This document shows positions 4,815 through 64,000 of a stretch of DNA of 64,000 nucleotides, in pieces; position 1 is the first letter of the stretch; every line of letters begins with the position of its first letter. Position numbers and translations under genes: made by a program. Origin of the DNA: Monocercomonoides exilis PA203 (Eukaryota; Protista; Preaxostyla); NCBI GenBank assembly GCA_001643675.2, contig LSRY02000045.1, positions 620,001 to 684,000 on the forward strand, written 5' to 3'. A model generated the notes under the pieces. That model was not told the DNA's origin, searched no databases, and saw only the letters and a list, made by a program, of their open reading frames with translations.

Positions 4815-5112
4815 TTTATCTATTAATTCCGAATTTGAATTATTTTTTTTCGAAATTGAATTATTCTTTTTCGAATTCGAATTATTAATTCCGAAATCGA
4901 ATTATTTTTTTTCGAATTCGAATTATTAATTCCGAATTTGAATTATTTTTTTTCGAAATTGAATTATTAATTTCCGAATTCGAATTATTAATTCCGAATT
5001 TGAATTATTTTTTTTCGAAATTGAATTATTAATTCCGATTTTGAATTATTCTTTTTCGATTTTGAATTATTAATTCCGAAATCGAATTATTTTTTTTCGA
5101 ATATGAATTATT
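4815..5112. repeat. Second copy of the GAATTC/TTCGAA minisatellite array, immediately upstream of the giant gene
   Basis: Same subunits, orientation and higher-order order as 478-866. Confidence 0.9.
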
Positions 5113-22860: not shown

Positions 22861-23108
22861 ATATGGATAATTTTATTTGAAAAGTCGCAAATGTTTAATT
22901 TTCAAGTGAACCAAAAATTTCATATTTTGCTCATATTTTTGTTTCCACTCTCGAATCTTTTTCAGAATGAATGAAATAGCATTATCCAGAAATAAATTCC
23001 ATATTTGTGAAGTTTGGTATACGTCAACAAAAATTTGAGCCAAATATGAAATTTTTGATTTATTTGAAAATTAAACAATTGCGACTTTTCAAAAAGATTT
23101 ACTCATAT
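22861..23108. mobile_element. MITE copy A (~248 bp, ~70-bp TIRs, ATAT flanks)
   Basis: atatggataattttatttgaaaagtcgcaaatgtttaatt ... aattaaacaattgcgacttttcaaaaagatttactcatat. Confidence 0.8.
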
Positions 23109-25620
23109 TTAAGAAAAAAACATTTTTATGGATTGGAATTTTGAAATACTTTTTGATACTTGAAAAAAAACAATTTTTTAAAATCACACATATATCAGAA
23201 TAATATTTCAAATATTTATTAAAAATTGATAATTATGAAACAAAAACAGATACAAGGATGCTTATTATAATGTTGTTATATTTTATAAATTGATTTATGA
23301 GATTAAAAAACATAAAAAATAATAAAAAGATGAATTGAACAATCTTTTGCGTTATTGAGAAATTTTTACATAAATTTGAAATTTATGCATGACATTTTGA
23401 TTTAAGCAAGTGATTTTGAAAATTTTAAGAAAAATTGAAAAAAAGGCAGTAATTTTCAGTTTCTCTCTCTTATTTCATATTAAATTAAATTGTGGGAAGA
23501 TCTCAAATTTTTGCAATATTTTTTGTTGGTTCGAAAATAATTGTTAATATGTCACAATAATTTTGAAGTATTTGACGTATAATTTCCAGAACATTCTCCG
23601 ACAAATTTTGTTAAATAAATCATTTTTCGTATTTTTGTGACAATCGTTTATTTGAAAAAACATAATTTTTCGTTAAATACGTTTGTTGAAATGTTTTTTT
23701 ACAACATAAGATTATCAACAATTAACATGGGTGATTATTTTTGATTTCATAACTTTTTTCTTGGTGTGAATTATTCAATGGTGATAATTGTTTGATTTGA
23801 TAGGTCTCACAAAAATGGTTCATCCATTTTGATTGTTTCAAATAACAGATTTTTCAAATGAAAGTGAGAAATAAATACTTCAATTGTACAATAACTTATC
23901 AATGTTTTATCATAAATATTCTTCACAAATTTTTGAACCGAATTTTTTTAAAGAAAAAATATGATTTGTCAAAATTTTTTTGAAAAGTGACATCAGATCA
24001 AAAATTTGACCCATTGTGGTTAATTCAAAACCACTCCGTTTCCATTATTCTCATCCAAAACGAAAAAATTCACTATAACGCTTATCAGTTATTTGCAAAC
24101 TTCTTTTAAGAAGAAAATTTTCAAAGCAAAAAATTATATGGGTAATTCTTTTTGAAAAGTCGCAAATGTTTAATATTCAAATAAATCAAAAATGTCATAT
24201 TTGGCTCAAAATTTTATTCTCAAACACCAAATTTCACAAACACGAAATCTGTTACTTGATAATGCCATTTCACAAATACTTATGAAGATTCATAAGCGGT
24301 TATAGAAATTTGAGCAAAATATGAAAAGAATTTTTTATTTGTAAATTAAACAATTGCGACTTTTCAAAAAGATTTACTCATATTTAAGAAAAAAACATTT
24401 TTATGGATTGGAATTTTGAAATACTTTTTGATACTTGAAAAAAAACAATTTTTTAAAATCACACATATATCAGAATAATATTTCAAATATTTATTAAAAA
24501 TTGATAATTATGAAACAAAAACAGATACAAGGATGCTTATTATAATGTTGTTATATTTTATAAATTGATTTATGAGATTAAAAAACATAAAAAATAATAA
24601 AAAGATGAATTGAACAATCTTTTGCGTTATTGAGAAATTTTTACATAAATTTGAAATTTATGCATGACATTTTGATTTAAGCAAGTGATTTTGAAAATTT
24701 TAAGAAAAATTGAAAAAAAGGCAGTAATTTTCAGTTTCTCTCTCTTATTTCATATTAAATTAAATTGTGGGAAGATCTCAAATTTTTGCAATATTTTTTG
24801 TTGGTTCGAAAATAATTGTTAATATGTCACAATAATTTTGAAGTATTTGACGTATAATTTCCAGAACATTCTCCGACAAATTTTGTTAAATAAATCATTT
24901 TTCGTATTTTTGTGACAATCGTTTATTTGAAAAAACATAATTTTTCGTTAAATACGTTTGTTGAAATGTTTTTTTACAACATAAGATTATCAACAATTAA
25001 CATGGGTGATTATTTTTGATTTCATAACTTTTTTCTTGGTGTGAATTATTCAATGGTGATAATTGTTTGATTTGATAGGTCTCACAAAAATGGTTCATCC
25101 ATTTTGATTGTTTCAAATAACAGATTTTTCAAATGAAAGTGAGAAATAAATACTTCAATTGTACAATAACTTATCAATGTTTTATCATAAATATTCTTCA
25201 CAAATTTTTGAACCGAATTTTTTTAAAGAAAAAATATGATTTGTCAAAATTTTTTTGAAAAGTGACATCAGATCAAAAATTTGACCCATTGTGGTTAATT
25301 CAAAACCACTCCGTTTCCATTATTCTCATCCAAAACGAAAAAATTCACTATAACGCTTATCAGTTATTTGCAAACTTCTTTTAAGAAGAAAATTTTCAAA
25401 GCAAAAAATTATATGGGTAATTCTTTTTGAAAAGTCGCAAATGTTTAATATTCAAATAAATCAAAAATGTCATATTTGGCTCAAAATTTTATTCTCAAAC
25501 ACCAAATTTCACAAACACGAAATCTGTTACTTGATAATGCCATTTCACAAATACTTATGAAGATTCATAAGCGGTTATAGAAATTTGAGCAAAATATGAA
25601 AAGAATTTTTTATTTGTAAA
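23071..25620. repeat. Near-perfect tandem duplication, unit 1275 bp
   Basis: 23071 onward equals 24346 onward; the 1275 offset was checked at several anchors (atatgggtaa at 24136 and 25411). Confidence 0.92.
24136..24383. mobile_element. MITE hybrid copy (body of copy B, right end of copy A)
   Basis: Begins atatgggtaattctttttgaaaagtcgc like 25411 and ends caattgcgacttttcaaaaagatttactcatat like 23108. Confidence 0.8.
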
Positions 25621-25658
25621 TTAAACATTTGCGACTTTTCAAAAAGAATTACCCATAT
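25411..25658. mobile_element. MITE copy B with perfect TIR ends (GGGTAATTCTTTTTGAAAAGTCGCAAATGTTTAAT) and ATAT flanks
   Basis: atat|gggtaattctttttgaaaagtcgcaaatgtttaat ... attaaacatttgcgacttttcaaaaagaattaccc|atat. Confidence 0.85.
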
Positions 25659-26039
25659 ATCTGATTAATTGATCAAAATCAAAATATTTGTTTTTCAAAG
25701 AAAAACGGTTTCTCTTGATTGAACTTCTTTGCAATTATTAACAAATGAAATGTCCAAGGAATGCATCGATTATTTTTCCTGATAAACTTGATTTCCAATG
25801 TTGATTCGACTTTTCATTTGAATAGAATTTTTCATTTGCATTATACGCATGAACTTAACACAAATGCGAAAATTGAACACTCATATTCGATGCATCAAAA
25901 AATTTGATAAATTTAGTGGTTAGTATTTTATTCAAACAAAAAATATTTAATTTTTATTTATTATTCAATCATGCTTTAAAATTGAAAAGTTCACAGTTGA
26001 TAGTTAACATTTGTCTCTTTAATGGCATATAAGATAAAG

Positions 26040-34044: not shown

Positions 34045-34286
34045 TGTCAAAATTTTTTTGAAAAGTTCCTATTGATTAATTTTCAAATAAAACAAAAATT
34101 TCATATTTCGATCAAATTTCTGTTTTCACTGACCAGATTTCATGAGAATGAATATAATATCATTATCAAGTATTTGTTTATATCACAGAAAAATTTGGTC
34201 AATGTGAACAGAAATTTGATCGAAATATGAAATTTTTGTTTTATTTGAAAATAAAACAATATGAACTTTTCAAAAAAATTTTGACA
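34045..34286. mobile_element. MITE (~242 bp, ~95-bp imperfect TIRs), distantly related to the 22.9-25.7 kb MITEs
   Basis: tgtcaaaatttttttgaaaagttc..ttcaaataaaacaaaaatttcatatttcgatcaaatttctgtt pairs with aacagaaatttgatcgaaatatgaaatttttgttttatttgaa..gaacttttcaaaaaaattttgaca; solo-end matches at ~23967, ~25242 and ~31870. Confidence 0.8.
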
Positions 34287-41300: not shown

Positions 41301-42568
41301 ATACAAAAGTTCAAAAAGAAGAAGATTATGATAAGGAATGAATGATTTTCAAAGCTTTTGAATATATCTCATTTCCTCGAGATATGAAGAAAAATTCGTC
41401 GTTGATAGAGAGGTTTTGTGTTTGAATAGGGAGCAAAGAAAATAAGATAACGATATGAGTTGAGTTATTGAGTAGGAAAAAGTTGAACAAATAGTGAAGT
41501 CATTTGGAATAACAGAATGAGATAATTCAGATGAAATAAATGTGATTATGAGTGACTTCAAATATTCAAATTCAATTTAGAAAAAAAAATCCATAACAAA
41601 TCTCTTTTTTTCTTTTCTTTTCTTTTTTCTTTTTTTAATTTCTTTTTCACATTTTTCTGAAAATTTGTGTTATCTAACTTTTCGTTTTCTCAACTACCAT
41701 TCTATCCGGCACTTTTATTTTTCCACTTCTTTTCGAATATTTAAACATCCTCCTCTTTTTTGATGGACATCTATGTTTCTCCTTCATCACTTTCATACTC
41801 CCAAATGGAATTGCGAGAAATGATGAAAAATGATCAAATGAAGAAATGATGATAACGATGGTGATTGCATCACCGATGAAGTGGATAACAAAGAAAATGA
41901 AGTAATTGAAGATGAAGAAAAATAGAAGTTGAGGCAAATATCCCATTTTCTTTTATTGAAATTTTGTCAATTTTATTAAAGTTTATCTATATATCATTCT
42001 TTTTTTCTTCTCTTTTGAAAACTCCTTCTCGTTCATTTATCAAAATGAATATATAACATTTTTCCTTTTCTTGCTTCTTTTTCTTTCTCTTTTGTTCTTG
42101 CTCCTCCTTTCTTTCATCTTTAATCACAAAAATCTTCAATTTTCAGATAAAATCAATAGACTGTGGAGATCGCATTCTAATTAAAAATGAATACATTTTC
42201 TGTCGATGTGGCAACTCTTTTTTTGGAGGGAAAATCACCTTCTTATTCCCATTTTGTTACCAGCTTCTTTGAATCTAAGTTGGATGAAAGAATTAGAAGA
42301 GAAATGGAAAAGAAAGAAGAAAAAGTCCAATTTGATTCATGAAAGCTTTTGTTGGTTCCAAAGTTTTTGTTGACATTTGAAAAATGAGTGTCATCAAGCT
42401 GGAATGTGTTGTTTGCACGCAGCATATCCCCTGGTCACGATTTTTCTGGCATTATCAAAACAGCATTCTTCAGATATCTGGGGCAGTTGTCGCGTTGTCT
42501 TGTGAATGAATGCAATCTGTCATCTGAGTTGAATTTCATGGAGAATGGATGTTAGCGATCGGAGAATA

Positions 42569-44753
42569 AGTAGTATATAATGCGAGTAATTAAACCCACA
42601 TTTAAAAATGTGGCCCAAATTACTCACATTACGGCTCCAAATAACATCAAACAAGAAAATTCATAAATTTCAACTTAAATTAAGTATTAATATTTGAAAA
42701 ATGATGTGTTTTTTCACATACTTTAGTGTGATCCAAAATATTTACTGTTTTAAATTATTTCAGTTCATTTTTTTAATTCATAATAAAAATGTCAGTTCAT
42801 GTTTTTTCTTTTTTAAATTAAAGCAAATTTGAAAAACTCATATTTATATTAGAACTAAAACGAAATGACTCAGTAATGCGGTATTCGATTTGACTAATAC
42901 CAATAAGTGAAATATAAAACCAAAAAGTGAGACTTAAAACCGTTTTGATTGAGTCAAGACCAATTGATTCAATTCTGGGTGCATGATCACCATGAAATTA
43001 AAAAAATGATAGTTTAAAAATTTTCAATTTTGAATTTATAAATGAAGTTTATTTCATAAAAATTATTATGTTCATGTTTCTTCTAGAAAAAAATGGAGTT
43101 TTAAAGTTTTCACACTTTTAAAAATCCTTTGTTCAATTTTCTATCTGTCAAAATAGAATGAATTCAAAAAATAAAAAGTGTATATCATTCTTTTGATTAT
43201 TATTTATTGATTTGAAGTGTTCAAATATAATGATCAAAATAGACCAATGTTATAATAAATTAAATTAAAAAGAAAAGCAAAACACAGATTCAAATGACTT
43301 AAACAACAAAATTATTCATTGAAAACACATCTATTCAAATAATTACACAAAAATGATAAAAATCGTTAAATTTCACACATTGCTCATAAAAAAATGAACA
43401 AACTTTATTGTTCTGAGGAAAATATCCATCAAAAACAAAAATTAACTTAAATCAGTGAGTTTCTCAACTATTTCAAAACCAACGGCTCTTACAATGAATG
43501 CGAATAAGTAAAAAATGTGGTATTTCAATGGAAAAAACCAAAATATCAATCACCAAATTTATCGACATTTTGTTCGTGATCATCAATAAATATCATTCAA
43601 ACACAAAAGCAACAATGAAATAAAAAACATATCAAAAAATTAATAAAAATGAACTGCTCTGTAACAGAAAACACAAAAAACTTCAAAGAATTTTGATCAA
43701 AATTGATATATAATTTTTGTATTTTAGATCACAAATTAGATTGAGAGAAAACCGAATTGATTGAGTCAAAACCATTAAAATAGACAAAAAACGTTTTGAC
43801 TAAAACAATTCGAATTGACCCGCTAAATTCGTTTAAGTTCTATTAAGCTTTCATAACTTAAGGGTTATACCATGGCCTTTCATAATTAAGGTCAAAGGTT
43901 CAATACCCGTTAGAGGCGACAAATTTTCAAACATTTGTCAAATCAAATAAATCATGCCTCTTTGCGATATATGAGACAGAGTTACTCATAGCTGCGCTGC
44001 AGTCAAATTCGCAGTGAATTTAGAACTCAAATTCAAAATCTAATTCACAATAATAAATGATAAGTGATTAATGAAAAGTGCTTAATGAAAAGTGCTTAAT
44101 GAAAAGTGCTTAATGAAAAGTGCTTAATGAAAAGTGCTTAATGACAATCAAAATTAAACAATAAATAATTAATCGATATCGATAATTAAAATTAATCAAT
44201 CAATAATAATAATTATTGAAATCAAATCAATTACAAAACAAAATCCCAAATATTGAAAATTTCCAAAACTTTCAGTTCTTCTAAAAAATTAAATTGGACC
44301 CTTTTTCATATTTATTTTTAAAATTAAACAGGATCTATTTATGTGGGGGGAAAATGACAGAGATTTTTTAAAATCGAAATTTTTTAAATTTCTATAAAAT
44401 TAGGAATAATGAGCAAACAAAATTTTAAGAATAAGAAATTGAAGCCATCAGAAATACTTGCGAAAACATTATTTCGACTTGACGTTATTCCTGCTTTTGG
44501 AAGAGGATCTTATCAAAAAAATAAGAAACTGTTGAAAGATTATGGAAAACAACAGATTCAAGAACAAGAGTTTTTAAATGCAATAGACGAAAATATATAT
44601 GACGATGTTCAACTCTCTAAAACACATGACGAACGAAAAGAATTGAGAAAACAGAAACTTTATTCTATTATTGAAGCTGCAAACACTTTCAAATTGAGAC
44701 GTGAAAGAGCAAAAGAGCTTGATGATCAAATAGCAGTCCTCAAAAAAGAAAAA
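42569..44753 (+). repeat. Left terminal inverted repeat (~2185 bp)
   Basis: Reverse complement of 61944-64000 (64000 pairs with 42710); the left boundary is inferred from the canonical AGTAGT start. Confidence 0.9.
44068..44143. repeat. 14-bp tandem repeat TTAATGAAAAGTGC, 5 copies in the left TIR and 6 in the right TIR (~62560-62643)
   Basis: Counted directly. Confidence 0.9.
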
Positions 44754-47700
44754 GCAAAATTATTAAATGATATTCCAGTATTAGCAGAAAAAATGATGAG
44801 ATATCATCAGATTAATAAAAAAGATACATATGGAGGTGAATTCGTTAGTACTGGAGATGAGCAAGCTCGTGAAGCTTGTAAGGACTTTAAAGAATTCTTG
44901 GAAATGAACACAGATACTGAACAAGCTTAATTATTGGATGAACAGTAACATGAGCTCAAAACCAATAATAAAATTGATTTCGAAATGTTGAATAACGAAA
45001 CACGTGCTAAACTGTTTCCTGAATTGAAAAAATATCTTGAATCACTTGTTGATAAAATTACGAAAGAAGATAAATATGTGTTCACATTGAAAATTGGGAA
45101 CAAATGGAGATCCAAAAAACTGACTCCAGAATTGTATAAACAGTTACTGTCAAATTTTACTGAAAAGAATTTTATGATAGACTTGTATGTTGATAATCAA
45201 AATATCAATTTTTCTGATCCTGAAGAGAGTGATATTCCTTCATGGAGCTTATATTCTGCTATCCACATTATGAAGCTCGAAGATTTTATAAAACTTCATC
45301 CTTCATCAAAAATTGATAAACAGATTTATAAAGATAAAGGAGGACACTTCTTCGATTATGTAACTGTTGAATCAGTTAAAAAGCCTGTGACTGATTATCT
45401 TAATAGACTTCAAATTTTTGATAAATTGACAGATAATAATAATAAAACTCGAAAAGAATTATTTGATTGCTACTGGATATATGCCTTAAATTCATCAGGA
45501 CTATTCGATGATGAAACACTTGACAAGATAAGATTGCGGGTGAAAAACAAATATTTATCGTCAACAAAAATAGATGCAATATGCGAAGAGTTTTATATAC
45601 ACTGCATTATTCATGAGCTTGATGATGAAGTAGTTGGACATAATAAGTGTAGAATGTCAGCTCCTCAAAAAGCATTAAAACGTAAAACATATCTAGGAGT
45701 TGATAAAAAAGAAGCTAAATATATATTTGAGCTTAATCTTTATCAAAAGCATTATTTTATGGAAGAGAGATCTCCAATCACAGAATATTATTTAGATCAT
45801 ATGAACACACTGGATGAAACAGAATACAATGTATTTTATGAAGGATCGCACAAGTGTAGAGCAAAAGGAAAGAGAACAAAAGAAGCACTAACATCAAGGA
45901 ATTTGGTAAAGAAGATGTTTGCAAAACAGCTTTTCAGACCTATAACTTATGGTGAATATCTAAAGATAAGCGACATCACCAAGCCTAGTGTCAAACAGAT
46001 TAACGATTTGCATTATAATCCAAAATTTTGTGTGAAATCGTTTAAGCAAATTGTGAAAGAAAAAGAATTTAATTCGATGCGTTATTAAAGCAAAACTATT
46101 TCAGACTATTATTATGCAGATTTCGAAGCAGATACAACAGGTATTCATAGAGCTTTTTACTGCTGTATAACAAACGAAAATGAAACAAAACACTTCAAAG
46201 GAGAAGATTGTGCAATTGAACTGTTGAACTATATTCCTGACAACTCTTGTGTATATTTTCATAATCTAAAATATGATTTCTGTATGATAGCTAAACATGT
46301 GGATGAACTTTCAAATCAAATCGCGAAAGACAACAGATTAATGAGAATCACAGTGAAATATAATAAGAAAACCATTGTATTTAAAGATTCATTTTCGATT
46401 ATTCCAAATGCATTAAAGCAATTCCCAAAGATGTTCAATTTAAAAAATACCCAAAAAGAATTGTTTCCATATAATTACTATACATTAAAGAGATTGAAAA
46501 ATAATACTGGAATTATTCGTGAAGCAGGAGAGTGTGAAGCTAAAAAGTGGAACATCGAAGATTATGAGCTTTTTAATAAAAATATTGACACTATTCCAGG
46601 ATGTCGATTAAGTGATAACACATTCGATATGTATAAATATTGTGGATTCTATTGTGAACAAGATACAAAAATATTAAGAGAAGGATTTCTCAAATTTCGA
46701 GAAGGATTCATGAATGATTTCGATATTGATATTCACGATTACTGTTCAATAAGCTCTCTTGCAGATGCCACACTGACAAAACAAGTGTATTCGAAGAATA
46801 AGAATTTGTATAAACTGGGAGGAATCATCAGAGAGTTTATGCAGCAAGCTGTTCACGGAGGAAGATGCATGATTGCATGCAATAAAAAATGGCACTCCAC
46901 ATCTCCTATTGTGGATTATGATGCTGTATCTTTATATGCTTCTGCTATGCACAGATTATATATGGTTGAAGGAACTCCAAGTGTAATTGAAACAGATGAG
47001 CAACACTCTTATGAGTTTTTACAGAATCAGAGTGCATATGTGGTGGAAATTGAGATTACAAAAGTGAACAAACACTATCCTTTTCCTTTACTCGTATTTG
47101 AAGATGATGAAGGAAATAATTTTAACAATGATGTTATTGATAAACCAGTGAGAACAGTTGTAGATAACATATATTTGGAAGACTAGATAGAGTTTCAGAA
47201 AATAGAATTCACAGTATTAAAAGGATATTTCTGGACAGGCAATCGTGATTACTCAATCCAAAAAGTCATCGGAGAAATATTTAATAAGCGAGCTGCATAC
47301 AAGAAAGAAAAAAATCCTTTAGAAGTTATATACAAATTAATCATGAATTCTCTCTATGGAAAAACAATTCAAAAGCCTGTTGATTATGAGATAAAATACA
47401 TTAATGAAAATGATATAGGAAAATATTGGAGCAAAAATTATAATAAAATTATTGAGTCATCAAAAATAGCAGATTCAAGAAATAAAACTCATGTAGAAAA
47501 ACACAGAAGCAGATAGACACTCATTTCACATTTAATTTATTTGGAATTCATATTTTAAGCATGTCCAAACGTATTATGAATGAAGTGATGTGTCTTGCAC
47601 ATGATCTCAACTGTCAAATCTATTATCAAGATACAGACTCTATGCACATTAGAATTGATGATCTATCAAGACTAGAAGAAGCTTTCAAAATAAAATACAA

Positions 47701-48166
47701 TCGTGATTTGAAAGGAACTCAGCTGGGAAACTTCCACTCTGATTTTCCAATGAATGCATTATTCGCAAGTGAATCTTATTTCTTAGGAAAGAAAATGTAT
47801 ATTGACAAGCTAGTACTTCCTGAAAATAAAACATCTTTCATGTTTCGCATGAAAGGGATTAAGCAGTCAGCTGTTGAAGCAAAAGCTAAGGAATCAGATG
47901 AATGCGAAGATTCTCTGATGAAATTATACAAGTGCATATATAAAGGAAAAACAGTTGAATTTGATCTCACAAATGGATCTCCTTGCTTTGAATTTGAAAA
48001 AGATTTTACTGTTGCATCTCTTGAAACTTTTAAAAGACGCATTAAAACATCATTAGAAATAGGAATACCCCCCGAAGGGATAGAGATCCTTTGGATCAAT
48101 ATCACAAGCAAGTGCTCAAATAAGAGCACAAATATAGAAAAAACATTTATGAAATTCATATTATAA
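44409..48166 (+). pseudogene. polB: Protein-primed family B DNA polymerase with long N-terminal (terminal-protein-like) region; 4 in-frame stops and 1 frameshift
   Basis: ORFs 44409, 44985 and 46224 share one frame; ExoI YADFEAD, ExoII FHNLKYDF, ExoIII YCEQD, motif A DAVSLYASAM, motif B KLIMNSLYGK, motif C YQDTDS, KKMY; frameshift ~47480. The first 173 aa could be a separate gene. Confidence 0.93.
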
Positions 48167-48215: not shown

Positions 48216-49466
48216 ATGACATCAAAATAAACTAATTCATCGACACAGTCGCTGAGAGCACGTTTGCGCATTCAATCACTCATTAAGAGTTTGTTAGCTG
48301 CGTCTGATTCTCTGCTCACAGAAATAGAAGTGTACAAGAAAATAAATAAGATTCCCACAAAAACTCGAGTGTTCAAAACATATTTTGAAGCTCACAAAAC
48401 AGATCTCATATTTGATATCACTATTGAAGAATTATACAACAGATATAGACTGGAGTATTAAAAGAAATATAATCCGAAACAGTACAAGAAACAGTTAAGA
48501 AATAATTATGAACTCATAATAGATGAGCAAACTCCTGAGCAAAATAAATTTCTTCAAGGCACGGGATTTAAATCAAAAAAGAAACAAGAATCACTTTTTT
48601 ATCAAAAATACAATTCTCTTCCTGCTGGACACTCAAAATATCTCAAGAATAGTTTTCCAGATAAAGAAAATAAGCAATACTATTTTCATCATGTGGGACA
48701 AAAATACACATTTTTGATAGATCTTATGTTTTCAGATAATTTATGTTATCTTGTTGCAATAGAACTAAATAATAGATATCTGTTTGTGGAGCCAACTAAT
48801 TTTTCTTCGAAAGATGAATCAAGCAGTGGAAAAGTCACTCATTCACAGCGTTCAGCTTCTGCTGTTGTTGAAGCTTTAAACAGAATGATTATAAGGGGAA
48901 TGAAAGTTAGATACTTGAGAGGAGATAGCGAACGTGCATTCAATAGCACTTTGGCTCACAAATATTTTAAAACTCACAACATTTCTTTTCAATCTCTTGT
49001 AAGTACAGGATCTTCTCACACACAAATGGCTCCGCTTGATAGAGTTGTCAGGACTATAAGAGACATGAATTATGCATCAAATCCTCATAGTGAGTTTATT
49101 AATCCAGTCAGAATGAAGCAACTGGTGTATTATTATAATAATGCTCCTCATTATAGTCTTTCAAAAATAATGAACTTCGATATCAGTCCTCAGCAAGTGT
49201 ACGATAATGAAGAATTGGAAAATGAGATCATTCGTCGAATTCATCAGTTGAATTTTAATATTATTAATTCTCTTGATTACAAGCTTCCGATCAACACTAT
49301 TGTCGTTTTAAAAGCTCATTATGAAAGATTAGACAAGAGAAGAATGAAAATTCTACCTGAAACGTTTACAGTAATCGGATATGATAAAGGAAAAATAAGA
49401 GTTGAGAGCAACGTTGATAATAGAATACTGCTTGTCTCAAGATGTGAAATAGCGAAACACAATTAA
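48216..49466 (+). pseudogene. Retroviral-like (RVE) integrase, D-D-D type; two upstream in-frame TAA, catalytic part 48462-49466 open
   Basis: LIDLMF, YLRGDSERAF, APLDRVVRTIRD, YYNNAPHYSL..SP; 48216, 48264 and 48693 are in the same frame. Confidence 0.88.
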
Positions 49467-49495
49467 AAAAATTACGATAAAAAATTTTCTGCAAC

Positions 49496-50500
49496 TTATG
49501 CTGTGCGTCTCCAAATTGCCAAATAAATTGCAGGAGGATCAATTGTGTGTGTATGACTATTACTGCCTCCTGTTGTGCTGAGACTTGCGGAATGGTTATG
49601 GCTTCCTCCAACTGCTGTGTAAAAATGGGTTTCACCTGATGAATCCCAATTAAATTCCATTCCAAGAATATTTCCAGGTGATCCGATACTTTGTAATGGG
49701 TGATATAAAGCATGTGTGTGTTCTCCACTGTTATCTATTGTGATGCTGTGAGTATGGCTTGGTATTTGAGAAGTTGTTAATGTCGTTGCACCAGAAGTTG
49801 ATGATCCAGATGTTGTGCCTATCAAATCTGCAGAAGATGCAGCTCTTATAAATCTTCCATTTGTTATCATTTTCCACGATGTTCCTGGATATGTTTTTGA
49901 TGGATCTGAAGCATCATATTTAATTATTACGCTGTTTATAGGATATATAACATTAACGATTGTTGTTAAAGATATCTGTTTTGCATCAATTTCTGATTTG
50001 TTGTAATAATTCTCTAATGATATTTGTTCTTTCTCGATTTCTAATAATTCTGTTCCATCCCACCAGTAATCAGGATCATTTGTCTCTTTTAAATAAAACG
50101 TTTGTCCAGTTTGTAATGTATTGACATTATCTTGAACGGAAAGCCATTGACACATATCTTCATAACTGTCAAACACTCTTGCTTTATATCCAACTTTAGC
50201 ATTCAATTCAGCGAACATATATCGATTCAAGTCTTGATTTGCTGTTATTGTTTCATTAATATCTTTAATCTTTTCTATAACACTTTCTTTCACTTTATCG
50301 ATATTCTCTAATGAATTATATATTTCTTTTATATTTTTGTCAACATTATTGAAATTCTCTAATGATTCATTTATTTCTTTAATACTTTCTTTCACATTAT
50401 CGAAATTCTTTAACGATTCATTTTTCATCTCCTGTTGCTGTTTGTGCTGAAGGATCATCAGAGCTATATTAGCGTTGATTGTTTTTAATGAGGAACTCAT
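49496..50500 (-). CDS. Fibre/baseplate-like structural protein: coiled coil + PDYWWDG domain + phage baseplate/tail-collar-like C-terminus
   Basis: Intact 334 aa; IYPINSV..DPSKTYPGTSW..GRFIRA..TLTTSQIPSHTH..HNH..PPAIYLAIWRRTA matches the pattern of phage gp10-C-like baseplate/tail proteins. Confidence 0.72.
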   Translation of the reverse strand: MSSSLKTINANIALMILQHKQQQEMKNESLKNFDNVKESIKEINESLENFNNVDKNIKEIYNSLENIDKVKESVIEKIKDINETITANQDLNRYMFAELNAKVGYKARVFDSYEDMCQWLSVQDNVNTLQTGQTFYLKETNDPDYWWDGTELLEIEKEQISLENYYNKSEIDAKQISLTTIVNVIYPINSVIIKYDASDPSKTYPGTSWKMITNGRFIRAASSADLIGTTSGSSTSGATTLTTSQIPSHTHSITIDNSGEHTHALYHPLQSIGSPGNILGMEFNWDSSGETHFYTAVGGSHNHSASLSTTGGSNSHTHTIDPPAIYLAIWRRTA

Positions 50501-50540
50501 TTATATATTGATAAAAATAAATTGTATTTCTTATTTTTGC

Positions 50541-51698
50541 TTAATAAAATGGAACACTAACTGGATATGTTATATTGAACTCAATAGTTCCCTTATTGTA
50601 ATACACCACTTGTTGAGATTTTATTTCCACAGTTATGTATGATACACCATCGTATTTAATTCGAACAGAACATGAACAATAATTTTCATAACCATCACCA
50701 CATCTGACTGTTATGCTGAATACGAAGTGAGATCCATCTGTGTATGGAGGAGACAAATAACTTTTTGCATTTGATACTGTGAATTTTCCAATTTGAATCC
50801 AAGCAGTTTTGTCATTGCCCGAGAGACTTTCAATATCTCCTCTGACATACATAGTGGCAAGCTCTCCATATCGACTAATAAATCCGAATGTGTTTTTCAG
50901 CAAGCTATTTCCAGTGAAAGCAAGTTTTTCTGAAGTTGGAATTCTGACTGCTCCAACTTTATTGTCAACGTATTGTTTTGTCACCAAGTGATAAATATTT
51001 GTTGGAACTGCTGATGTTGTTATTGCATTTGCAAATGTTTTGCTTCCAGTGATAGTTTCTGTTCCACTCAAATGAACCACACTTTCGTCATTAGCTTTTG
51101 AAGAATCACTTGGATGAATATGATCTTCTCTTGCATATTTATCTGATGTTCCGGCATTAACAGAACCATCCATTAACGGATTACTTGTTCCTGCTTTTTC
51201 TGATAATTCATCAGGAAGAACGTCAACTGATAACTTTCCACTTTCATCTAATCCTGCATATCCATTTGCTTTATCTTTATTTGTTGTTTTTTCATATCCT
51301 TCCAACTCAATTCCAGTTAAATCAATCATGTCTTCTGATATGGTTAGATATGATGATGCAATTTTTCCATTATTGTCAAGAGGAACATATCCATTCGCTT
51401 GTCCTTTGTTCTCAATCTTCTCACAAGTTTCAACAATATTATCAATCTGAACTGCTTTATAGTACTCGTTAAGTTCTCCCACACTAAAGTCACTAACATC
51501 ACACTCAATTTTCTTTAACGCTGTTCCATCCCACCAGTAATCAGGAACATTATTTCCTTTTATAAGTATTAATTGTCCTTTTACGAGATTTCCTTTATTC
51601 ACATCGATCCAAGTTTGCATCTCTGAAGCTGAATCAAACACTAAATTTCTTGTGCCTGTCTGTCTGAGCTGTCTCTGATAAATATCTGATGTTTGCAT
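50541..51698 (-). CDS. Phage tail-fibre-like protein (likely start MQTSD at 51698)
   Basis: Intact; PDYWWDG domain; two KxxANGY(V/A)xLDxxGK repeats; PLMDG..GTSDKYAREDHIHPSD; VVHLSGTETITGSKTF; VTKQYVD; beta-rich C-terminal head. Confidence 0.75.
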   Translation of the reverse strand: MQTSDIYQRQLRQTGTRNLVFDSASEMQTWIDVNKGNLVKGQLILIKGNNVPDYWWDGTALKKIECDVSDFSVGELNEYYKAVQIDNIVETCEKIENKGQANGYVPLDNNGKIASSYLTISEDMIDLTGIELEGYEKTTNKDKANGYAGLDESGKLSVDVLPDELSEKAGTSNPLMDGSVNAGTSDKYAREDHIHPSDSSKANDESVVHLSGTETITGSKTFANAITTSAVPTNIYHLVTKQYVDNKVGAVRIPTSEKLAFTGNSLLKNTFGFISRYGELATMYVRGDIESLSGNDKTAWIQIGKFTVSNAKSYLSPPYTDGSHFVFSITVRCGDGYENYCSCSVRIKYDGVSYITVEIKSQQVVYYNKGTIEFNITYPVSVPFY

Positions 51699-51751: not shown

Positions 51752-52583
51752 ATGTTAAAAACACTTGTGAAAGTCCCTCCAAAAAGATACATAAAACAAA
51801 TGAAGGTGGAATTAACAGATTCAGACACTCAAACCACTAATCAAAACACTCAGAGTAATAATGTGGAAAATATTAATGAAAGAAATCTTTTTTATTCCAA
51901 TGAAAATAGTATGCCTATTCCAATTTCTGTATCAGCGAATTTAACCAAATCAACACATACTTCAACTCCATCGATGTCTAGTACAATTAACGTAAATGTG
52001 GCTGCAGGAAACACTGATTCAACAAAGGAGGCAGCTTCAAGAAGAAACAGTCAGCAAGAGCGAGAACAATCAATTCCTGAACGGATCTCTGATCCTCGAG
52101 GGGACTTTGTCCCCGAAGCACTTCCTTCACTTCCAGAATCGTTCGATAATTTCACAGCTTATCCTTCTGTTCCATTTGAACCATCAGCGCCCTCTTCATC
52201 AACACATCCTTATCCATTGTATTCGTTGCGAGAATCAATAACTATTAATCCTGATGACGAAAACAGATTTAAAGATAAATATATCGAGTTACTCATTAAT
52301 GTGATCAATTCTCCAAAAAAAGTGCTCAAGAGTTGCATTGAACCCAGTAAGATGATTATTCTTCCTGCTGATGAATTAACAATATTGATTGCATTATTGT
52401 AAGGAGTCAACGATGTTGAAATCATTATTGAAGAACAAGCAGTATCGTGTTTAGGAAAAGTGAAGTTCATCAAAGATATCTCTCGAATATTAGTCGGTGG
52501 ATTAGATCTTCAAATAAAATATTATCACATTTACAACAGACTGTTAGGTTATCATGTCTCTCTTGTTCACACATTCTTGAATA
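51752..52583 (+). pseudogene. Polinton hypothetical protein (low-complexity N-terminus; frame continues past TAA at 52400)
   Basis: 216-aa ORF followed by an in-frame continuation GVNDVEIIIEE... Confidence 0.5.
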
Positions 52584-52938
52584 ACTCGAAAGAAAAATAA
52601 ATGTTATATATATTTTTGAAAGAAAAATCCTTCGCCTGAATTTCAGGCAACGATTATTAAAGTCATTTTTTGAAGATGCAGAACTTTCCGTATCATCATT
52701 TTTTGACATAAGTTGAATAAATCATTAGTTGAATGCAAAAATGATATCAAATCAACTGTTTTCATAGTCAAAAATGATACGACACAAGTGACTAAGTTTT
52801 TCATGTGCCGATGTGTGTCATGCCGTTTTTGCATATGAGATGTCCTGATTTCAGTCTCAATATTGATCAATCTTATGTCTAAAACTGCAAAAGACCGGCA
52901 CAATCAGCACTGCACAAGTGAGCGATTCAAGATTCTTT

Positions 52939-53072
52939 AAAAACAGGTTTGCAGGTCTGCGTATGTTACGTTACATAAATAATTGATTGATGAACTAATG
53001 TCAATGCACAGGGTGCACAGGGTGCACAGGGTTATTTCACTTCTTGTAAAATCAGTGGCCATACGGACATAT
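52939..53072 (+). repeat. Internal inverted repeat, left arm, with three TGCACAG(G/T)G iterons
   Basis: Reverse complement of 55824-55957. Confidence 0.92.
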
Positions 53073-53139
53073 GTGACATTATTGTTTGAAAAATATATCC
53101 AACATATAAGCTAAATACCCCTGAAGCAATAGAGATTCT

Positions 53140-55758
53140 TCAAATCGATAGTGCATCTACAATTTCATCTCCTGCAGTTATTGTTTGATGATACAAAGAC
53201 TTACATTCATCTTTCAATATATAATACCATGATCGTACTCCATTTTTTGTTTTTTGTTTATGAACGCATTTATCTTTGATCTGCAGTTGAAAATTTTTAT
53301 CTTTCATCTCACAAGGTTTATTTGCAAGAGCATCTGTACATTTCATACCTTCGCATAGGTCATCATAATAATCACAAATCCAGTTTTCAAAAGGGTTTTT
53401 GCTTGCCTCGATTATATCTTGTTTTGCTTCTGTTATTGGAATTAATCTAACGTTGAACTTTGAGAGATCTCTTTTCATGAAATACGTTAACAGATTATCA
53501 TAGAATTCCGTTGTAAATGAATCACATAATTGTTCAAAGAATGAAAAGTTATTTTTGTATTTTCCATTACATGCAAGCACAACGTATCTACGATCTCCTA
53601 TTTCTATTTTTAAAGGAAAAGAATTATTAGTTACGAATATAAAGTTAGCAACATTTTCAAAATTTCTTCTTGGTTGATTCTTTTCGTTTATTCTTATTAC
53701 TATATCTGTAATGACTGATTTTAATGCATTGAAGTTTGCTAGTCTATCTTCTCCACAGTTCTTGAGTTCGTTTAATATTATTAACATTTTGCTTTCTACA
53801 ACAGAATTAAAGTTACCTGTCAATTCTCCTATTTCTGTAACATTTCTGCTCGAATATCCAGCAAACAATTCAGATATTACATCTGTAAATCTATTCTAAC
53901 CAATCCCTTGAAGTCCTTTCAATACCAAGGCAGTTTCATTTTTGATTCCAGGATGTTGAACAATATTAGCAATCCAGTTAATAACATATTCATATAGTTC
54001 ATCATTTGAATCTGCAATTACCTCTCGAACAAAGTCAAGAAACATTGATATTATTTTCATGGCGACTTGTTCAAGAATTCGATACTTAAACCCTTGAAAC
54101 ATAGAATACATGTTTGGAATATCTAAAGCATTAAACATAACACCTTGTAATGTTAATTTGGATAAACCTGTGAGTAGAATGTCATATGCAGTTATTGTTT
54201 TCGATTCAGTCTTCCACGATTGTATCATCTTTAGATTTTTCTTCATATTTGTATCTGTGACGAAAGCAATACACCAGCATTTGTCAAATATATTATACTC
54301 TTTTTGTATATACATTGATCCAGTTTCAATAAATCGAAAAACTCTTGAAAGATCAGTAAATACTTCACTATTGTTTTTATACTGGCCACTTTCTGATTTG
54401 TTTCTTATATCTGTTTGTGAAAATGAATCATATAAATCAATTGGTTCGATACACTTTTCATATTCAACTGCTTCTTTTTCTTTTGAACTTTTCAAAAGTT
54501 TCATTTTCTTTATCTCAGGAACAACAGTGTTTTGATAATATTCTGGACACCAGATCTTAACAATCTTTTGTAAGACATAAGGTGTTGATTTCTTATTCAA
54601 ACAGTTCTCTCGTGTTTTATCCCAATTCAGATCAGCATTGGCTGTTAAAGTATTATTGCTTTTTATCTCTTGATAATACGCTTCGATGTCTTCTTCTTGT
54701 ACTGATTCGATATTAATGAGACTGTTAATGGCGCAAAACAATGGGAATAACGATAATTCTTTATCGATACTGAAATGACAATAATTATGAATTGTAACAT
54801 TTGTGATTCCACAAACAAGCACTTCAGCAAACTCTTTCGGCATCGAGCAGAGTCCATCAGCTGTTAGATGTATGTTCGTATCATCATTAAATGAATCATA
54901 TCGAATATCAATACCAAATATGTTTAGTATATCTTCCAATGATGAAAGATTCGATTTGTCAAGATAGTTATTCAAGTCAACATAATTTTTAACTATTTTT
55001 GAATCTCCTTTGACTCTTTCACGTATTCTGGTCTCAGCCTGTTCAATGAATAGATTGATTGCAGAATCATTATATCGACCAGTTATATCACACTCTTCTT
55101 TTGCTTTCTTTTTCAGTTTCTCAGGAATATGTATTGTTGCATCCTTGCTCTCTTCTTCAGTGAACTTTATTATTTTTGTTTCGGCTTGAACAAGACATCG
55201 TCGATTTCCATTCACACAAGTAAACACATCTATCTCATAGTCGGAACACTTGTAGACTTTTGTTTGTGAATCAGTCTTTAATGGATATTCATCTCGGTCA
55301 CAATAGATATGTAATCCACCATTTCCTGTCTGAACTAATCCAACATTTTCTGGTAATCTTAAGAGAATTGATTGTCTGATTTTTTCTTTTCTTTCTTCGT
55401 CGACTGCTTTGTTTATATCGATATCAACTACAGCTGGATTATCAATTTTGCTGATATCAATATATTGTCCTGTTTTTTGTCCTGTTTCATAAATCGTTTC
55501 ATCTGTATCCTTGTTCTTAAATTCTCGAGACACTTTCTTGTAATTGTATCATGGTTTTATACATCCATTTATTCGTTCACCAATAGTTTTCTTTTTCATC
55601 ATTTCTTTTCGTATTCTCTGTTTTTGTTCTTCCTGTACAAACATCTTTTCTATTATTGGATCTTCGTCAACCATTAATGCTGGATTCTTTTTAAAAGATC
55701 AGAATTTATGACCATCGTGTTTTCCATTTGTCTTTTTAGTGGAAGCAAAAAAATCCAT
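53140..55758 (-). pseudogene. AEP (Prim-Pol-like) primase fused to a D5-like SF3 helicase; 3 in-frame stops
   Basis: VVDIDI and VQTGNGGLHIY (AEP motifs); Walker A GLQGIG*N with the Lys replaced by TAG 53896; Walker B IILNEL; motif C IFVTNN; DRR. Frame opens at ATG 55758 and crosses two TGA. Confidence 0.88.
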
Positions 55759-55823
55759 TTTTTTTAAAACAAAACTTATTTTTGATTTTAGTTTTCAAAT
55801 GCATTTTTTCATATATATGACCA

Positions 55824-55957
55824 ATATGTCCGTATGGCCACTGATTTTTTAAGAAGTGAAATAACACTGTGCACCCTGTGCACCCTGTGCATTGACATTA
55901 ATTCATCACACAATTATTTATGTAACGTAACCGCAGCAGACGAGCAGACATGTTTTT
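55824..55957 (-). repeat. Internal inverted repeat, right arm
   Basis: Reverse complement of 52939-53072. Confidence 0.92.
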
Positions 55958-56099
55958 TCTATTAATTAAAATGACCCGGTGAACTGACATTCTTTTTCGA
56001 TATTTCTTTTGTGAATCGTTAATGTTTCTTTAACATAAATGAAAAAAATATTATTAATATTGTCATAAATAATGAAAACAGTTTTGATATATTTTTGAT

Positions 56100-56627
56100 T
56101 TAATACTCCAACATGTATTTCATTACGAACTTGACATTAGACATATCCAAAGGAGTTTCATCAAAATTTTTGAACCAAACTCTGAAGTTATCTTGTTGAA
56201 AAAACTGCTGATATTTATCTCTCTCTTGAAATTCATTACAATACCTAACAAGTGAATCATTATCTTTATCTTCATGAATGAAATCCCCATGTAATGAAAT
56301 GTGTTTAGGCTCTTCAAGTGCAATAGTATTTATTAAATTTGAAGATTCAGTGTTGTTTAATTCAATTTTTCGAATTAGTTTACACCATATTACATGAAAA
56401 TATCTTTTGCGTTTTGAATTTATAAACGCTTTTGGAAGAATAGTGATTAAAGTTGATGTTGTGTGATATCTTTTAACAGGCACACAGTTCTCATAATTTA
56501 TATCTATGTTCGATGAAATATCACACAGGGTCAAGGTCTGCAGAGCAGCCTTCGCTGGATGCACTTCATGTGCAGTCATTTTCTGAAAATTAAAATCCCA
56601 AAGCATTTCAAAAATGAAATTAAACAT
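56100..56627 (-). CDS. Polinton hypothetical protein (beta-rich; minor capsid/penton candidate by position and size only)
   Basis: Intact ORF downstream of the capsid candidate; no motif recognised. Confidence 0.55.
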   Translation of the reverse strand: MFNFIFEMLWDFNFQKMTAHEVHPAKAALQTLTLCDISSNIDINYENCVPVKRYHTTSTLITILPKAFINSKRKRYFHVIWCKLIRKIELNNTESSNLINTIALEEPKHISLHGDFIHEDKDNDSLVRYCNEFQERDKYQQFFQQDNFRVWFKNFDETPLDMSNVKFVMKYMLEY

Positions 56628-56826: not shown

Positions 56827-58587
56827 TTATTCTTCTAATTCTCCAGCTGGAGTATATCCTAACTCACTTAATACATCTTCTGTAGTATGATCTTTAACAT
56901 ATTGAACATTTAATCCATCTTTGAGACTAAAAATCCAAAATGATTGTTGAACCATGTTGAATAGAGGAGCAGGGGGATGTCTTGCATTTTGAGTGAGATC
57001 ATCTCTAACGTTGTAATAAGTATCTGTTTCTCCACTGTAAATGGGAGTTCCTCTGAGTTCAACAGAAACAGGAGTATTTCCAGTGTGAATTCCATAAAAA
57101 CAGATTCCAGTTCCACAACTTCTCTCACACTGTGTTGTGAACATGAATGATGTTTCATCAGTAGTTGGAAAGAAGACTTCAGAAGCATTATTTTTGACAC
57201 TTGTGAGACTCTCTTCATACTCCTCAGTGGCTGGGAATAAAGAATCAAGATCTGAAGCATTAAGCATCATCTGGAAAAACATTGCATCTGTAGTATTTAA
57301 AGGCTTTTCAGGGAATCGTCTATCACCGATGTAGAGTTGGAGCTCTTTATATTGAGGGTTATCAAATGTTGTCCAATGACGAGTATCTTTTTGGAATAGA
57401 GAAACTGTTGACATAACATGATTAAAGCATAAGTTGTCATGGCACTGTTGAAATCCTGAAGGAGTAGGAGCACTTCCTAATCTTTTTGTCTCAATTCTTT
57501 GTGAAGGAACTACAAATGGATGAGAAGAGAAGTATTCAACAAGATTAGTTTAGCACTGAGAAGACACATTTTATCCCGCAATAGAGATCTTACAGTCTTT
57601 CGTCTGGCAAAATGTGACTGTGGGAGTAAACTCAGGAATAATAGTTTCATAATTGAATCCATCAACAGTTCCTTCAGCAGTTAAGTCATAATTAAATACA
57701 AACTGACGTGAAGGACAGTTTATTTGTGTGAACTTCTTTGCATACTCAAAACATGAATCAGGAGTAGTAAGGATCATCTTCATTACGCTATCGTAGTTTT
57801 GTCCTTGTGAAGATTTGAAGAAGTTTCTTCGTTTTCCTACAGTTTTGATCATGGACATTTTTGGAGATACTCGACAGTTAACAAGTGCTTCAGGTTTTAT
57901 GGTGTATTTGAGTTTCAAATTTCCGAATAAACGATTTGGATAATCAATAAATCCTGAAAACAGAAGAATATCATCAAGAGGAATAGATATTGGAATATCA
58001 ATATCAAGATAAGATCCTGCTTTAATTAGTGTTATCGGAACGTAGACTCCACAAGCAGAATTATCATATTTGTGCACATTATCATATAAAGAGTGTATAT
58101 GTTTTCGATTATCTTTCTCAGTTTTTGGCTTGATTGTGTTATATATAAATGATTCAATAGTTGCATTGGGCTGACGAGTAGAATCAATAATCTTATCTTC
58201 TCCATGAACAACACAATAATCTGAGATAATATTTGATCCTGATCTCAGTCCGATGAACATAAATTGAGACTCAAGCAGTTTCTTTCCTGCTTGTGAGATC
58301 TCATTATCGCGTGTAACAAGATCATGAGAGAAATTAATTCTTGCAGTAATGACTGTAGTAATAAATGAATCGTGAATTTGTGTGACATCCACATTTGCGT
58401 TAGTCATCGATATGTTTATTTCATGAGTGTAATCCAAAGGAAGTTTTTCATCAGGAATAGCTTCAGAAATAGAATAATAGTGTCTTCCATCGTTGATTGC
58501 AGTCATTTTTGAATAAGTTTTTAATGCAGCCTCAATATTTCCGACAGGCTGTAACCCAAGTGATTTTGTAACATGCAGATTTGACAT
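56827..58587 (-). pseudogene. Probable major capsid protein (divergent double jelly-roll), ~586 codons, two in-frame TAA
   Basis: ORFs 57571..58587 and 56827..57414 are one frame (IAG*NVSSQC*TNLVEYFSSHPFVVPSQRIE); largest beta-rich structural-type ORF near the ATPase. The fold is inferred. Confidence 0.6.
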
Positions 58588-61916: not shown

Positions 61917-62288
61917 TTATTTTTTCTTTATGTTGAAATTTATTTTTTCTTTTTTGAGAACTGCTATTTGATCATCAAGCTCTTTTGCTCTTTCACGTCT
62001 CAATTTGAAAGTGTTTGCAGCTTCAATAATAGAATAAAGTTTCTGTTTTCTCAATTCTTTTCGTTCGTCATGTGTTTTAGAGAGTTGAACATCGTCATAT
62101 ATATTTTCGTCTATTGCATTTAAAAACTCTTGTTCTTGAATCTGTTGTTTTCCATAATCTTTCAACAGTTTCTTATTTTTTTGATAAGATCCTCTTCCAA
62201 AAGCAGGAATAACGTCAAGTCGAAATAATGTTTTCGCAAGTATTTCTGATGGCTTCAATTTCTTATTCTTAAAATTTTGTTTGCTCAT
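61917..62288 (-). CDS. Truncated duplicate of the first 115 codons of the 44409 ORF, carried in the right TIR
   Basis: Identical protein up to ..AVLKKEK, then 8 unrelated residues. Confidence 0.75.
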   Translation of the reverse strand: MSKQNFKNKKLKPSEILAKTLFRLDVIPAFGRGSYQKNKKLLKDYGKQQIQEQEFLNAIDENIYDDVQLSKTHDERKELRKQKLYSIIEAANTFKLRRERAKELDDQIAVLKKEKINFNIKKK

Positions 62289-64000
62289 TATTCCTAATTT
62301 TATAGAAATTTAAAAAATTTCGATTTTAAAAAATCTCTGTCATTTTCCCCCCACATAAATAGATCCTGTTTAATTTTAAAAATAAATATGAAAAAGGGTC
62401 CAATTTAATTTTTTAGAAGAACTGAAAGTTTTGGAAATTTTCAATATTTGGGATTTTGTTTTGTAATTGATTTGATTTCAATAATTATTATTATTGATTG
62501 ATTAATTTTAATTATCGATATCGATTAATTATTTATTGTTTAATTTTGATTGTCATTAAGCACTTTTCATTAAGCACTTTTCATTAAGCACTTTTCATTA
62601 AGCACTTTTCATTAAGCACTTTTCATTAAGCACTTTTCATTAATCACTTATCATTTATTATTGTGAATTAGATTTTGAATTTGAGTTCTAAATTCACTGC
62701 GAATTTGACTGCAGCGCAGCTATGAGTAACTCTGTCTCATATATCGCAAAGAGGCATGATTTATTTGATTTGACAAATGTTTGAAAATTTGTCGCCTCTA
62801 ACGGGTATTGAACCTTTGACCTTAATTATGAAAGGCCATGGTATAACCCTTAAGTTATGAAAGCTTAATAGAACTTAAACGAATTTAGCGGGTCAATTCG
62901 AATTGTTTTAGTCAAAACGTTTTTTGTCTATTTTAATGGTTTTGACTCAATCAATTCGGTTTTCTCTCAATCTAATTTGTGATCTAAAATACAAAAATTA
63001 TATATCAATTTTGATCAAAATTCTTTGAAGTTTTTTGTGTTTTCTGTTACAGAGCAGTTCATTTTTATTAATTTTTTGATATGTTTTTTATTTCATTGTT
63101 GCTTTTGTGTTTGAATGATATTTATTGATGATCACGAACAAAATGTCGATAAATTTGGTGATTGATATTTTGGTTTTTTCCATTGAAATACCACATTTTT
63201 TACTTATTCGCATTCATTGTAAGAGCCGTTGGTTTTGAAATAGTTGAGAAACTCACTGATTTAAGTTAATTTTTGTTTTTGATGGATATTTTCCTCAGAA
63301 CAATAAAGTTTGTTCATTTTTTTATGAGCAATGTGTGAAATTTAACGATTTTTATCATTTTTGTGTAATTATTTGAATAGATGTGTTTTCAATGAATAAT
63401 TTTGTTGTTTAAGTCATTTGAATCTGTGTTTTGCTTTTCTTTTTAATTTAATTTATTATAACATTGGTCTATTTTGATCATTATATTTGAACACTTCAAA
63501 TCAATAAATAATAATCAAAAGAATGATATACACTTTTATTTTTTGAATTCATTCTATTTTGACAGATAGAAAATTGAACAAAGGATTTTTAAAAGTGTGA
63601 AAACTTTAAAACTCCATTTTTTTCTAGAAGAAACATGAACATAATAATTTTTATGAAATAAACTTCATTTATAAATTCAAAATTGAAAATTTTTAAACTA
63701 TCATTTTTTTAATTTCATGGTGATCATGCACCCAGAATTGAATCAATTGGTCTTGACTCAATCAAAACGGTTTTAAGTCTCACTTTTTGGTTTTATATTT
63801 CACTTATTGGTATTAGTCAAATCGAATACCGCATTACTGAGTCATTTCGTTTTAGTTCTAATATAAATATGAGTTTTTCAAATTTGCTTTAATTTAAAAA
63901 AGAAAAAACATGAACTGACATTTTTATTATGAATTAAAAAAATGAACTGAAATAATTTAAAACAGTAAATATTTTGGATCACACTAAAGTATGTGAAAAA
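61944..64000 (-). repeat. Right terminal inverted repeat (runs off the window)
   Basis: Reverse complement of 42710-44753. Confidence 0.93.

Follow-up and report, generated by a model that had tools for sequence, protein, structure and literature searches.

A primase-helicase gene between inverted candidate origin repeats in a decayed Polinton of Monocercomonoides exilis, likely inverted in some sister copies

Polintons that carry a D5-like primase-helicase gene are already on record (described in the accessible text of PMC4405056). It remains open why some of them keep such an enzyme besides a protein-primed polymerase, and how replicases are swapped between viruses. We analysed a locus that raises both questions within a 64,000-nt stretch of contig LSRY02000045.1 from Monocercomonoides exilis PA203, referred to below as the window. 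With moderate confidence, we explain a 3-kb segment of it (the cassette) as a self-contained module of a primase-helicase and predicted origin repeats, which occupies a fixed slot and is flipped and exchanged there via its inverted arms. What was observed is the arms themselves, the family and fold of the gene, a slot shared with three sister copies, mosaic gene halves and junction contigs.

The element that encloses the cassette is a decayed Polinton-type virus. An earlier note, made from the letters of the window, had called it a Polinton, and this is borne out by a family B DNA polymerase of the protein-primed kind (pPolB), a double jelly-roll capsid gene and long terminal inverted repeats (TIRs). 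The element exceeds 21 kb, probably starts near 42568 at AGTAGT, and has TIRs of at least 2066 bp that are 99% identical. Around the cassette it contains the following features:

42710..44761, + strand: left Polinton terminal inverted repeat
44409..48166, + strand: protein-primed-type family B DNA polymerase (PF03175, E 1e-32), broken by stops and a frameshift
48216..49556, + strand: rve-like integrase candidate, from motifs and position
51752..52639, + strand: left neighbour gene with two in-frame stops; no Pfam family
56100..56627, - strand: right neighbour, a 175-aa ORF; no family match
56827..58587, - strand: double jelly-roll major capsid protein gene with two in-frame stops
61936..64000, - strand: right Polinton terminal inverted repeat, 99% identical to the left one; runs off the window

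The TIR (44409-44761 and 61936-62288) includes the first 117 polymerase codons and a 14-bp tandem array of ~7 copies. Since it covers the polymerase start, the right end has a second copy of a short ORF for the polymerase N-terminus. Relatives of the polymerase number 219; most are 40-50% identical and unnamed, and they sit on contigs of 2-17 kb, forming a large unannotated group of related elements. The gene at 48216..49556 is probably an rve-like integrase as read from its motifs and position, and gave no match in Pfam, PHROGs or the PDB. The ATPase of the element is likewise putative, assigned from motifs and position. Two fibre-like genes with phage tail/baseplate domains lie inside the Polinton at 49496-51698, and the position of the right neighbour suggests that it may encode a minor capsid protein. 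A model of the intact sister capsid P0333 (96% identical; mean pLDDT 54) gave Z scores of 12.1 to faustovirus and 11.1 to mavirus, and the first 13 rows of its fold search were all double jelly-roll proteins. The nearest named relatives come from Monocercomonoides exilis (capsid 96%) and Streblomastix strix, which points to an oxymonad as the probable host. Capsid proteins of endogenous viruses in metamonads are already known, and the Metamonada capsid group also has capsid relatives in Streblomastix (as far as the accessible text of PMC10120064 goes).

The cassette and its surroundings comprise five features:

52793..52925, no strand: outer block beyond the left arm that carries opposed, degenerate TGTGC / GCACA motifs
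52939..53072, + strand: left arm of the inverted repeat, 3' of the primase-helicase stop codon
53005..53031, + strand: candidate iterons, three tandem 9-bp units TGCACAGGG, in the left arm, 108 bp past the stop codon
53140..55674, - strand: AEP primase - SF3 helicase gene (NrS-1/D5-like), a pseudogene here; probable start 55674
55824..55957, - strand: right arm of the inverted repeat, 5' of the gene start; iteron triplet at 55865-55891

The arms are true reverse complements, as the earlier note had described them, with 120 of 134 positions identical (blastn E 3e-45) and two copies in the window. Its division into a near-identical 108-bp core and a diverged outer part also agrees with the alignment (102/108 in the inner part, 18/26 in the outer 26 nt). 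Each arm holds the three tandem 9-bp units that had been claimed, TGCACAGGG, the final unit of the right arm being TGCACAGTG, and GTTACGTTAC and TGGCCA motifs are present in both arms. GTGCAC palindromes had been counted as three per arm; there are only two in each. A 14-mer of the repeat occurs four times in the window, every time inside the arms (chance expectation 0.06). The left-arm triplet adjoins a stretch of 77% AT (52966-53004). Degenerate GCACA/TGTGC motifs related to the arm repeats extend beyond the left arm (52804-52919), and the outer block is possibly the rest of a two-sided origin. Its opposed set at 52804-52825 is degenerate, and the spacer there, at 69% AT, is not richer than the element. 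In sister copies the outer block has different repeats, of the CTTGCTCC / GGAGCAAG type, and in one sister copy outer-block sequence is found on the capsid side. The repeats in each arm point one way only, and a fuller origin-like block exists only 3' of the gene. There is no support for a hairpin origin at 52760-52940, where folding is no better than that of shuffles (z -0.21).

Between the arms lies one long gene, in line with the claim that they enclose only the primase-helicase, and a six-frame profile search found no second copy of it in the window. The protein fuses AEP primase and SF3 helicase domains (PF19263 and PF05272 matches), and the closest solved protein is NrS-1 (E 4e-27). A model of the relative P0003 matches the folds of NrS-1, ASFV PrimPol, the pRN1 primase-polymerase and, weakly, SaPI PriRep; its predicted C-terminus is made of helices and a beta hairpin. 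The enzyme family is large in metagenomes, with 1184 representatives at E values up to 1e-30. A search by protein alignment for the DNA around relatives on viral, metagenome and genome contigs gave no confirmed relative and three distant phage loci at 24%. A search with a degenerate helicase motif returned 8 + 1 + 0 loci with three distant helicases, at none of which were there flanking inverted repeats.

The gene is not intact, which the earlier note had overlooked. The frame 55758-53140 has in-frame stops at codons 20, 70 and 621, the third of which falls in the Walker A motif. An alternative code with TAA/TAG as Gln does not rescue the gene, as a TGA still interrupts it and decoding in the host is standard: an ORF of 3594 codons in host DNA has no internal TAA/TAG and is terminated by TAA. 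The stops are therefore real, and the window copy is dead. At its C-terminus this host ORF (5476-16260) encodes a fragment of a protein kinase. Translation of the primase-helicase probably does not begin at the ATG at 55758, which had been taken for the start, since two sister proteins begin at Met codon 29 (55674), and this ATG is absent from one sister contig. Measured from 55674, the gaps to the arms are 149 and 67 bp instead of 65 and 67, so the symmetric spacing of the arms noted earlier would be accidental.

The resemblance of the repeats to origin iterons of a primase-helicase replicon, also proposed in the earlier note, holds at the level of sequence. The 9-bp unit holds TGTGCACC and the type-1 repeat of phage P4 is TGTTCACC; 7 of 8 bases are identical, the two being one base apart. 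The 9-bp spacing of the arm repeats is also the spacing between the first two repeats of P4 crr. In P4, both crr and ori are needed. We found the exact 16-mer of the repeat in 60 viral loci, 38 of which are collagen-type coding repeats. Helicases at the 16-mer loci were identified by scanning 59 selected proteins. Among the other 22 loci, three mutually unrelated ones (L059, L022 and L047) have the 16-mer at most ~45 bp past the point where a primase/SF3 gene ends; in a further three phages, which are related, it lies 1.8-2.0 kb behind such a gene. In most of the primase/SF3 loci the motif is clustered on both strands (L047 has just 2 plus 1). A second motif set of 56 loci gave 0 SF3 matches with a profile that detected 4 of the 6 helicase loci of the first set; this set is no clean control because one of its members, L112, itself has an origin-like array behind a helicase. 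There, at L112 1486-1570, roughly eight repeats of the TGGAGCAAG type form a non-coding array, which is preceded by an AT-rich stretch and lies 400 bp behind the gene for an AAA_25 helicase. Both-strand TGCACAG clusters were seen on phage contigs at L059 2234, L022 3001 and L047 500, and in L003, L049, L024, L044, L048, L031, L004 and L034, where they sit behind primase-helicase genes or before terminase genes. Such clustered arrays may represent an origin motif that AEP/SF3 replicons have in common.

The phage and satellite systems resemble the cassette in different respects. Origins of SaPIs lie directly behind rep and are recognised by a C-terminal winged helix, and SaPI5 PriRep with its ori shares with the cassette a fused primase/SF3 helicase and short iterons right behind the gene (both from the accessible text of PMC9371898). 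SaPI5 has, according to the same text, a single origin with the opposed iterons around an AT-rich core that SaPI origins require, whereas the cassette has two one-directional blocks that lie 2.8 kb apart, face each other across the gene and reside in a eukaryotic virus. The alpha gene of P4 (X51522) is like the cassette in that repeat blocks flank the primase-helicase gene on both sides. P4 crr consists of 120-bp repeats 45 bp behind the alpha gene (X51522), and these are direct and adjacent, unlike the inverted, separated blocks of the cassette. No sequence similarity was detected between P4 alpha and the enzyme family of the window. By analogy with SaPI PriRep and P4 alpha, the C-terminal domain of the helicase would bind the 9-bp repeats, load itself and prime DNA synthesis internally. 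Such internal priming could give the virus a second replication start, besides protein priming at its ends.

Sister copies, that is, the other annotated capsid loci of the oxymonad genome, allow the slot to be compared, with the gene neighbourhood judged by accession order. A primase adjoins the capsid gene at all three of these loci, and none of the three is an empty site. Identities among copies (BLASTP) are 96-98% for the capsids, 90-97% for the fibres and 54-92% for the primases, where the values of 54% and 68% include a foreign C-terminal part of P0341. This protein shares the primase half of the window enzyme and has an unrelated C-terminal part from about residue 420, near which contigs also diverge. 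P0342 combines a primase of another clade with a window-type helicase, based on domain trees with 100/99 support (18 and 20 rows, picked from 24 by coverage). Near-identical capsids and fibres next to divergent and chimeric primases indicate that the module is exchanged faster than its neighbours. The repeat sequence may change along with the helicase half. In one sister copy, KAH7822621-22 and KAH7822630-31 form an identical inverted duplication of a split capsid gene, with starts facing inward, which is either a head-to-head dimer or an assembly artefact.

The orientation of the cassette was read from short assembled contigs, as which the region is present in four runs (X1, X2, X3 and X4) of one sample. 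A contig of 251 nt begins with ~72 nt of right flank (56094-56022), passes through a private arm variant with 16 differences in 106 nt from the window arm, and ends with 72 nt, the first 30 of which match 53073-53102, beside the stop codon at the 3' end of the gene, at 29/30. Its depth is 4 in X2 and 78 in X3 (the depth of single-copy contigs), and the same joint recurs in X1, which makes three of the four runs; contig depth was not taken as copy number. A second contig (448/394 nt), found in X2 and X3 and thus in two of the four runs, connects 56121-55969 with opposite-strand sequence of 52760-52898. Both contigs place far-end sequence of the cassette on the capsid side in some copies. As judged from these joints, sister copies likely carry the cassette inverted. 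The invertible segment, one of three options in the earlier note, thus gains some direct support from two junction contigs, while no listed contig spans the cassette. The joints listed do not include the reciprocal junction, at which the left flank would meet the gene start. Alternatively, the 251-nt contig could come from the left junction in a copy that is not inverted and has a lengthened inverted repeat; 56072-56094 and 52739-52765 are weakly alike over 23 nt. A joint between 55490 and 55916 (X3) may reflect a diverged copy in the window orientation. In sister contigs, GGAGCAAG-type repeats occur in the outer block and also in an arm before a primase start that is 94% identical. These copies may be the ones with the other C-terminal half, a link that runs through 30-letter loose ends untied to named copies.

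Would a single duplication account for the second arm? It could be a neutral by-product, the origin behind the gene having been duplicated once in front of it in the course of recombination or capture; the odd junctions would then be later decay or assembly noise. The one-sided position of the fuller origin-like block fits this account, the copies are decayed and indel-rich, and the inverted capsid duplication indicates that palindromic rearrangements or mis-assemblies occur at least once in the genome. The second arm is, however, not unique to the window copy. Arm variants occur in several copies (at least three among the contigs), and where their repeats differ the inner core is still retained. 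Repeats before the gene are also present in a copy of another repeat type, the junctions recur in three and two of the four runs, and each window arm is backed by exact contigs. We therefore regard a neutral duplication as improbable.

A different question is whether the cassette moves on its own. It could be, now or in the recent past, an autonomous 3-kb replicon of the transpoviron type, which copies itself from the arms and integrates either way round, in Polintons as well as at other sites, possibly with the Polinton integrase acting in trans. Transpovirons are likewise small units bounded by inverted repeats around a replicase; unlike them, the cassette has only a primase-helicase between its arms and no transposase or integrase of its own there. 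D5-type genes are annotated on 13 contigs of the oxymonad genome, and the capsid family on just four of these; the genes on the nine contigs with no listed capsid may be solo units or remnants. However, the capsid list is incomplete, and a fibre gene lies on a fifth contig with no listed capsid. A family of about ten loci, 74-94% identical to P0003, has no listed capsid gene on seven of eight contigs. In one contig, found in X4 only (joint 53030-53201), the 3' end of a window-type helicase is connected to a stretch that matches the repeat triplet over 24 nt. Many full-length environmental homologues sit on contigs scarcely longer than the gene, although short contigs are usual in metagenomes. 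Several observations speak against the self-copying mobile unit suggested in the earlier note: the same slot is filled in all three sister copies, no joint listed skips the cassette at the arms, no clear target-site duplication flanks it (4/5 bases match), and the cassette lacks an integrase. Summed contig depth over the cassette, a poor measure, is not above that of the flanks. Two joints that were considered as an empty site, 52117-56561 and 56557-52079 (X1 only, side 39), are not located at the arms. A mobile replicon of this kind is unlikely in our view. Equally doubtful is its boldest form, a one-gene replicon of the phage-satellite type that is autonomous in a eukaryotic genome and invades the Polinton slot either way, its origin repeat changing together with the helicase half.

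Inversion could also be a regulated switch that points the gene at a promoter or away from it and thereby alternates between protein-primed and primase-driven replication. The element has two replication systems, and it appears that both orientations exist. Against this, neither a tyrosine nor a serine recombinase was matched among 12 element proteins scanned with PHROGs or in Pfam scans, which divergent recombinases can escape. Moreover, the arms are near-identical, so that flipping alters little beside the gene, and both neighbour genes end toward the arms. We consider such a switch very unlikely.

Under the preferred explanation, a fixed module that is flipped and exchanged, no dedicated recombinase would be required. 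Ordinary homologous or replication-linked recombination between the two inverted repeat blocks would flip the module, and recombination in the arms would also let other modules or half-genes be swapped in. Invertible herpesvirus segments and chloroplast flip-flop isomers show that inverted repeats yield two orientations with no dedicated recombinase. Those repeats are kilobases long, whereas the arms of the cassette measure 134 bp around a single gene.

Repeat-bracketed replicases have already been proposed, and what is added here is the likely inversion isomers and the motif link. Inverted repeats were proposed as origins for PLV primase-helicases by Barth et al. 2024 (accessible text of PMC11296320). 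Barth, Ha and Aylward (bioRxiv 10.64898/2026.10.13.758929) report, in the text available, non-terminal repeats that bracket one replicase in polisuviruses (Polisuviricotina) with two replicase classes, an element that comprises nothing other than an AEP gene, AEP genes with no integrase, and domain swapping within replicases. A term search of that text found inversion, metamonads and 'origin of replication' nowhere; here, sister copies suggest both orientations, and the repeats are linked to a P4-like motif. The known Polintons with a D5-like primase-helicase share with our element the pPolB, the double jelly-roll capsid, the long TIRs and the D5-like gene (accessible text of PMC4405056). Neither there nor in the accessible text of PMC10120064 are internal repeats around the gene or isomers described. 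Our literature search, which left most subscription papers outside, found no paper on Polinton inversion isomers, on Polintons in this host or on P4 repeats.

For the two questions raised at the outset, the locus supplies an origin candidate that can be named, the 9-bp repeat that is close to the P4 iteron. It also supplies a few sister copies that differ in the helicase half and apparently in the repeat, and recombination between inverted origin blocks as a likely physical route of exchange. The idea of a mobile replicase can thereby be tested in a single cultured protist, for which there are a long-read genome and intact relatives of the enzyme. If true, an autonomous unit of the phage-satellite type would be the vehicle behind the turnover of replicases in small DNA viruses of eukaryotes.

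Other repeats in the window are of different kinds. Four AT-rich, MITE-like palindromes of ~245 bp (22861-23108, 24136-24383, 25411-25659 and 34045-34286) are 70-80% alike; three of them lie within a 1275-bp tandem repeat, and none resembles the arms. The host DNA also contains two arrays of alternating 20/21-bp repeats, at 450-880 and 4800-5110, about 4 kb apart.
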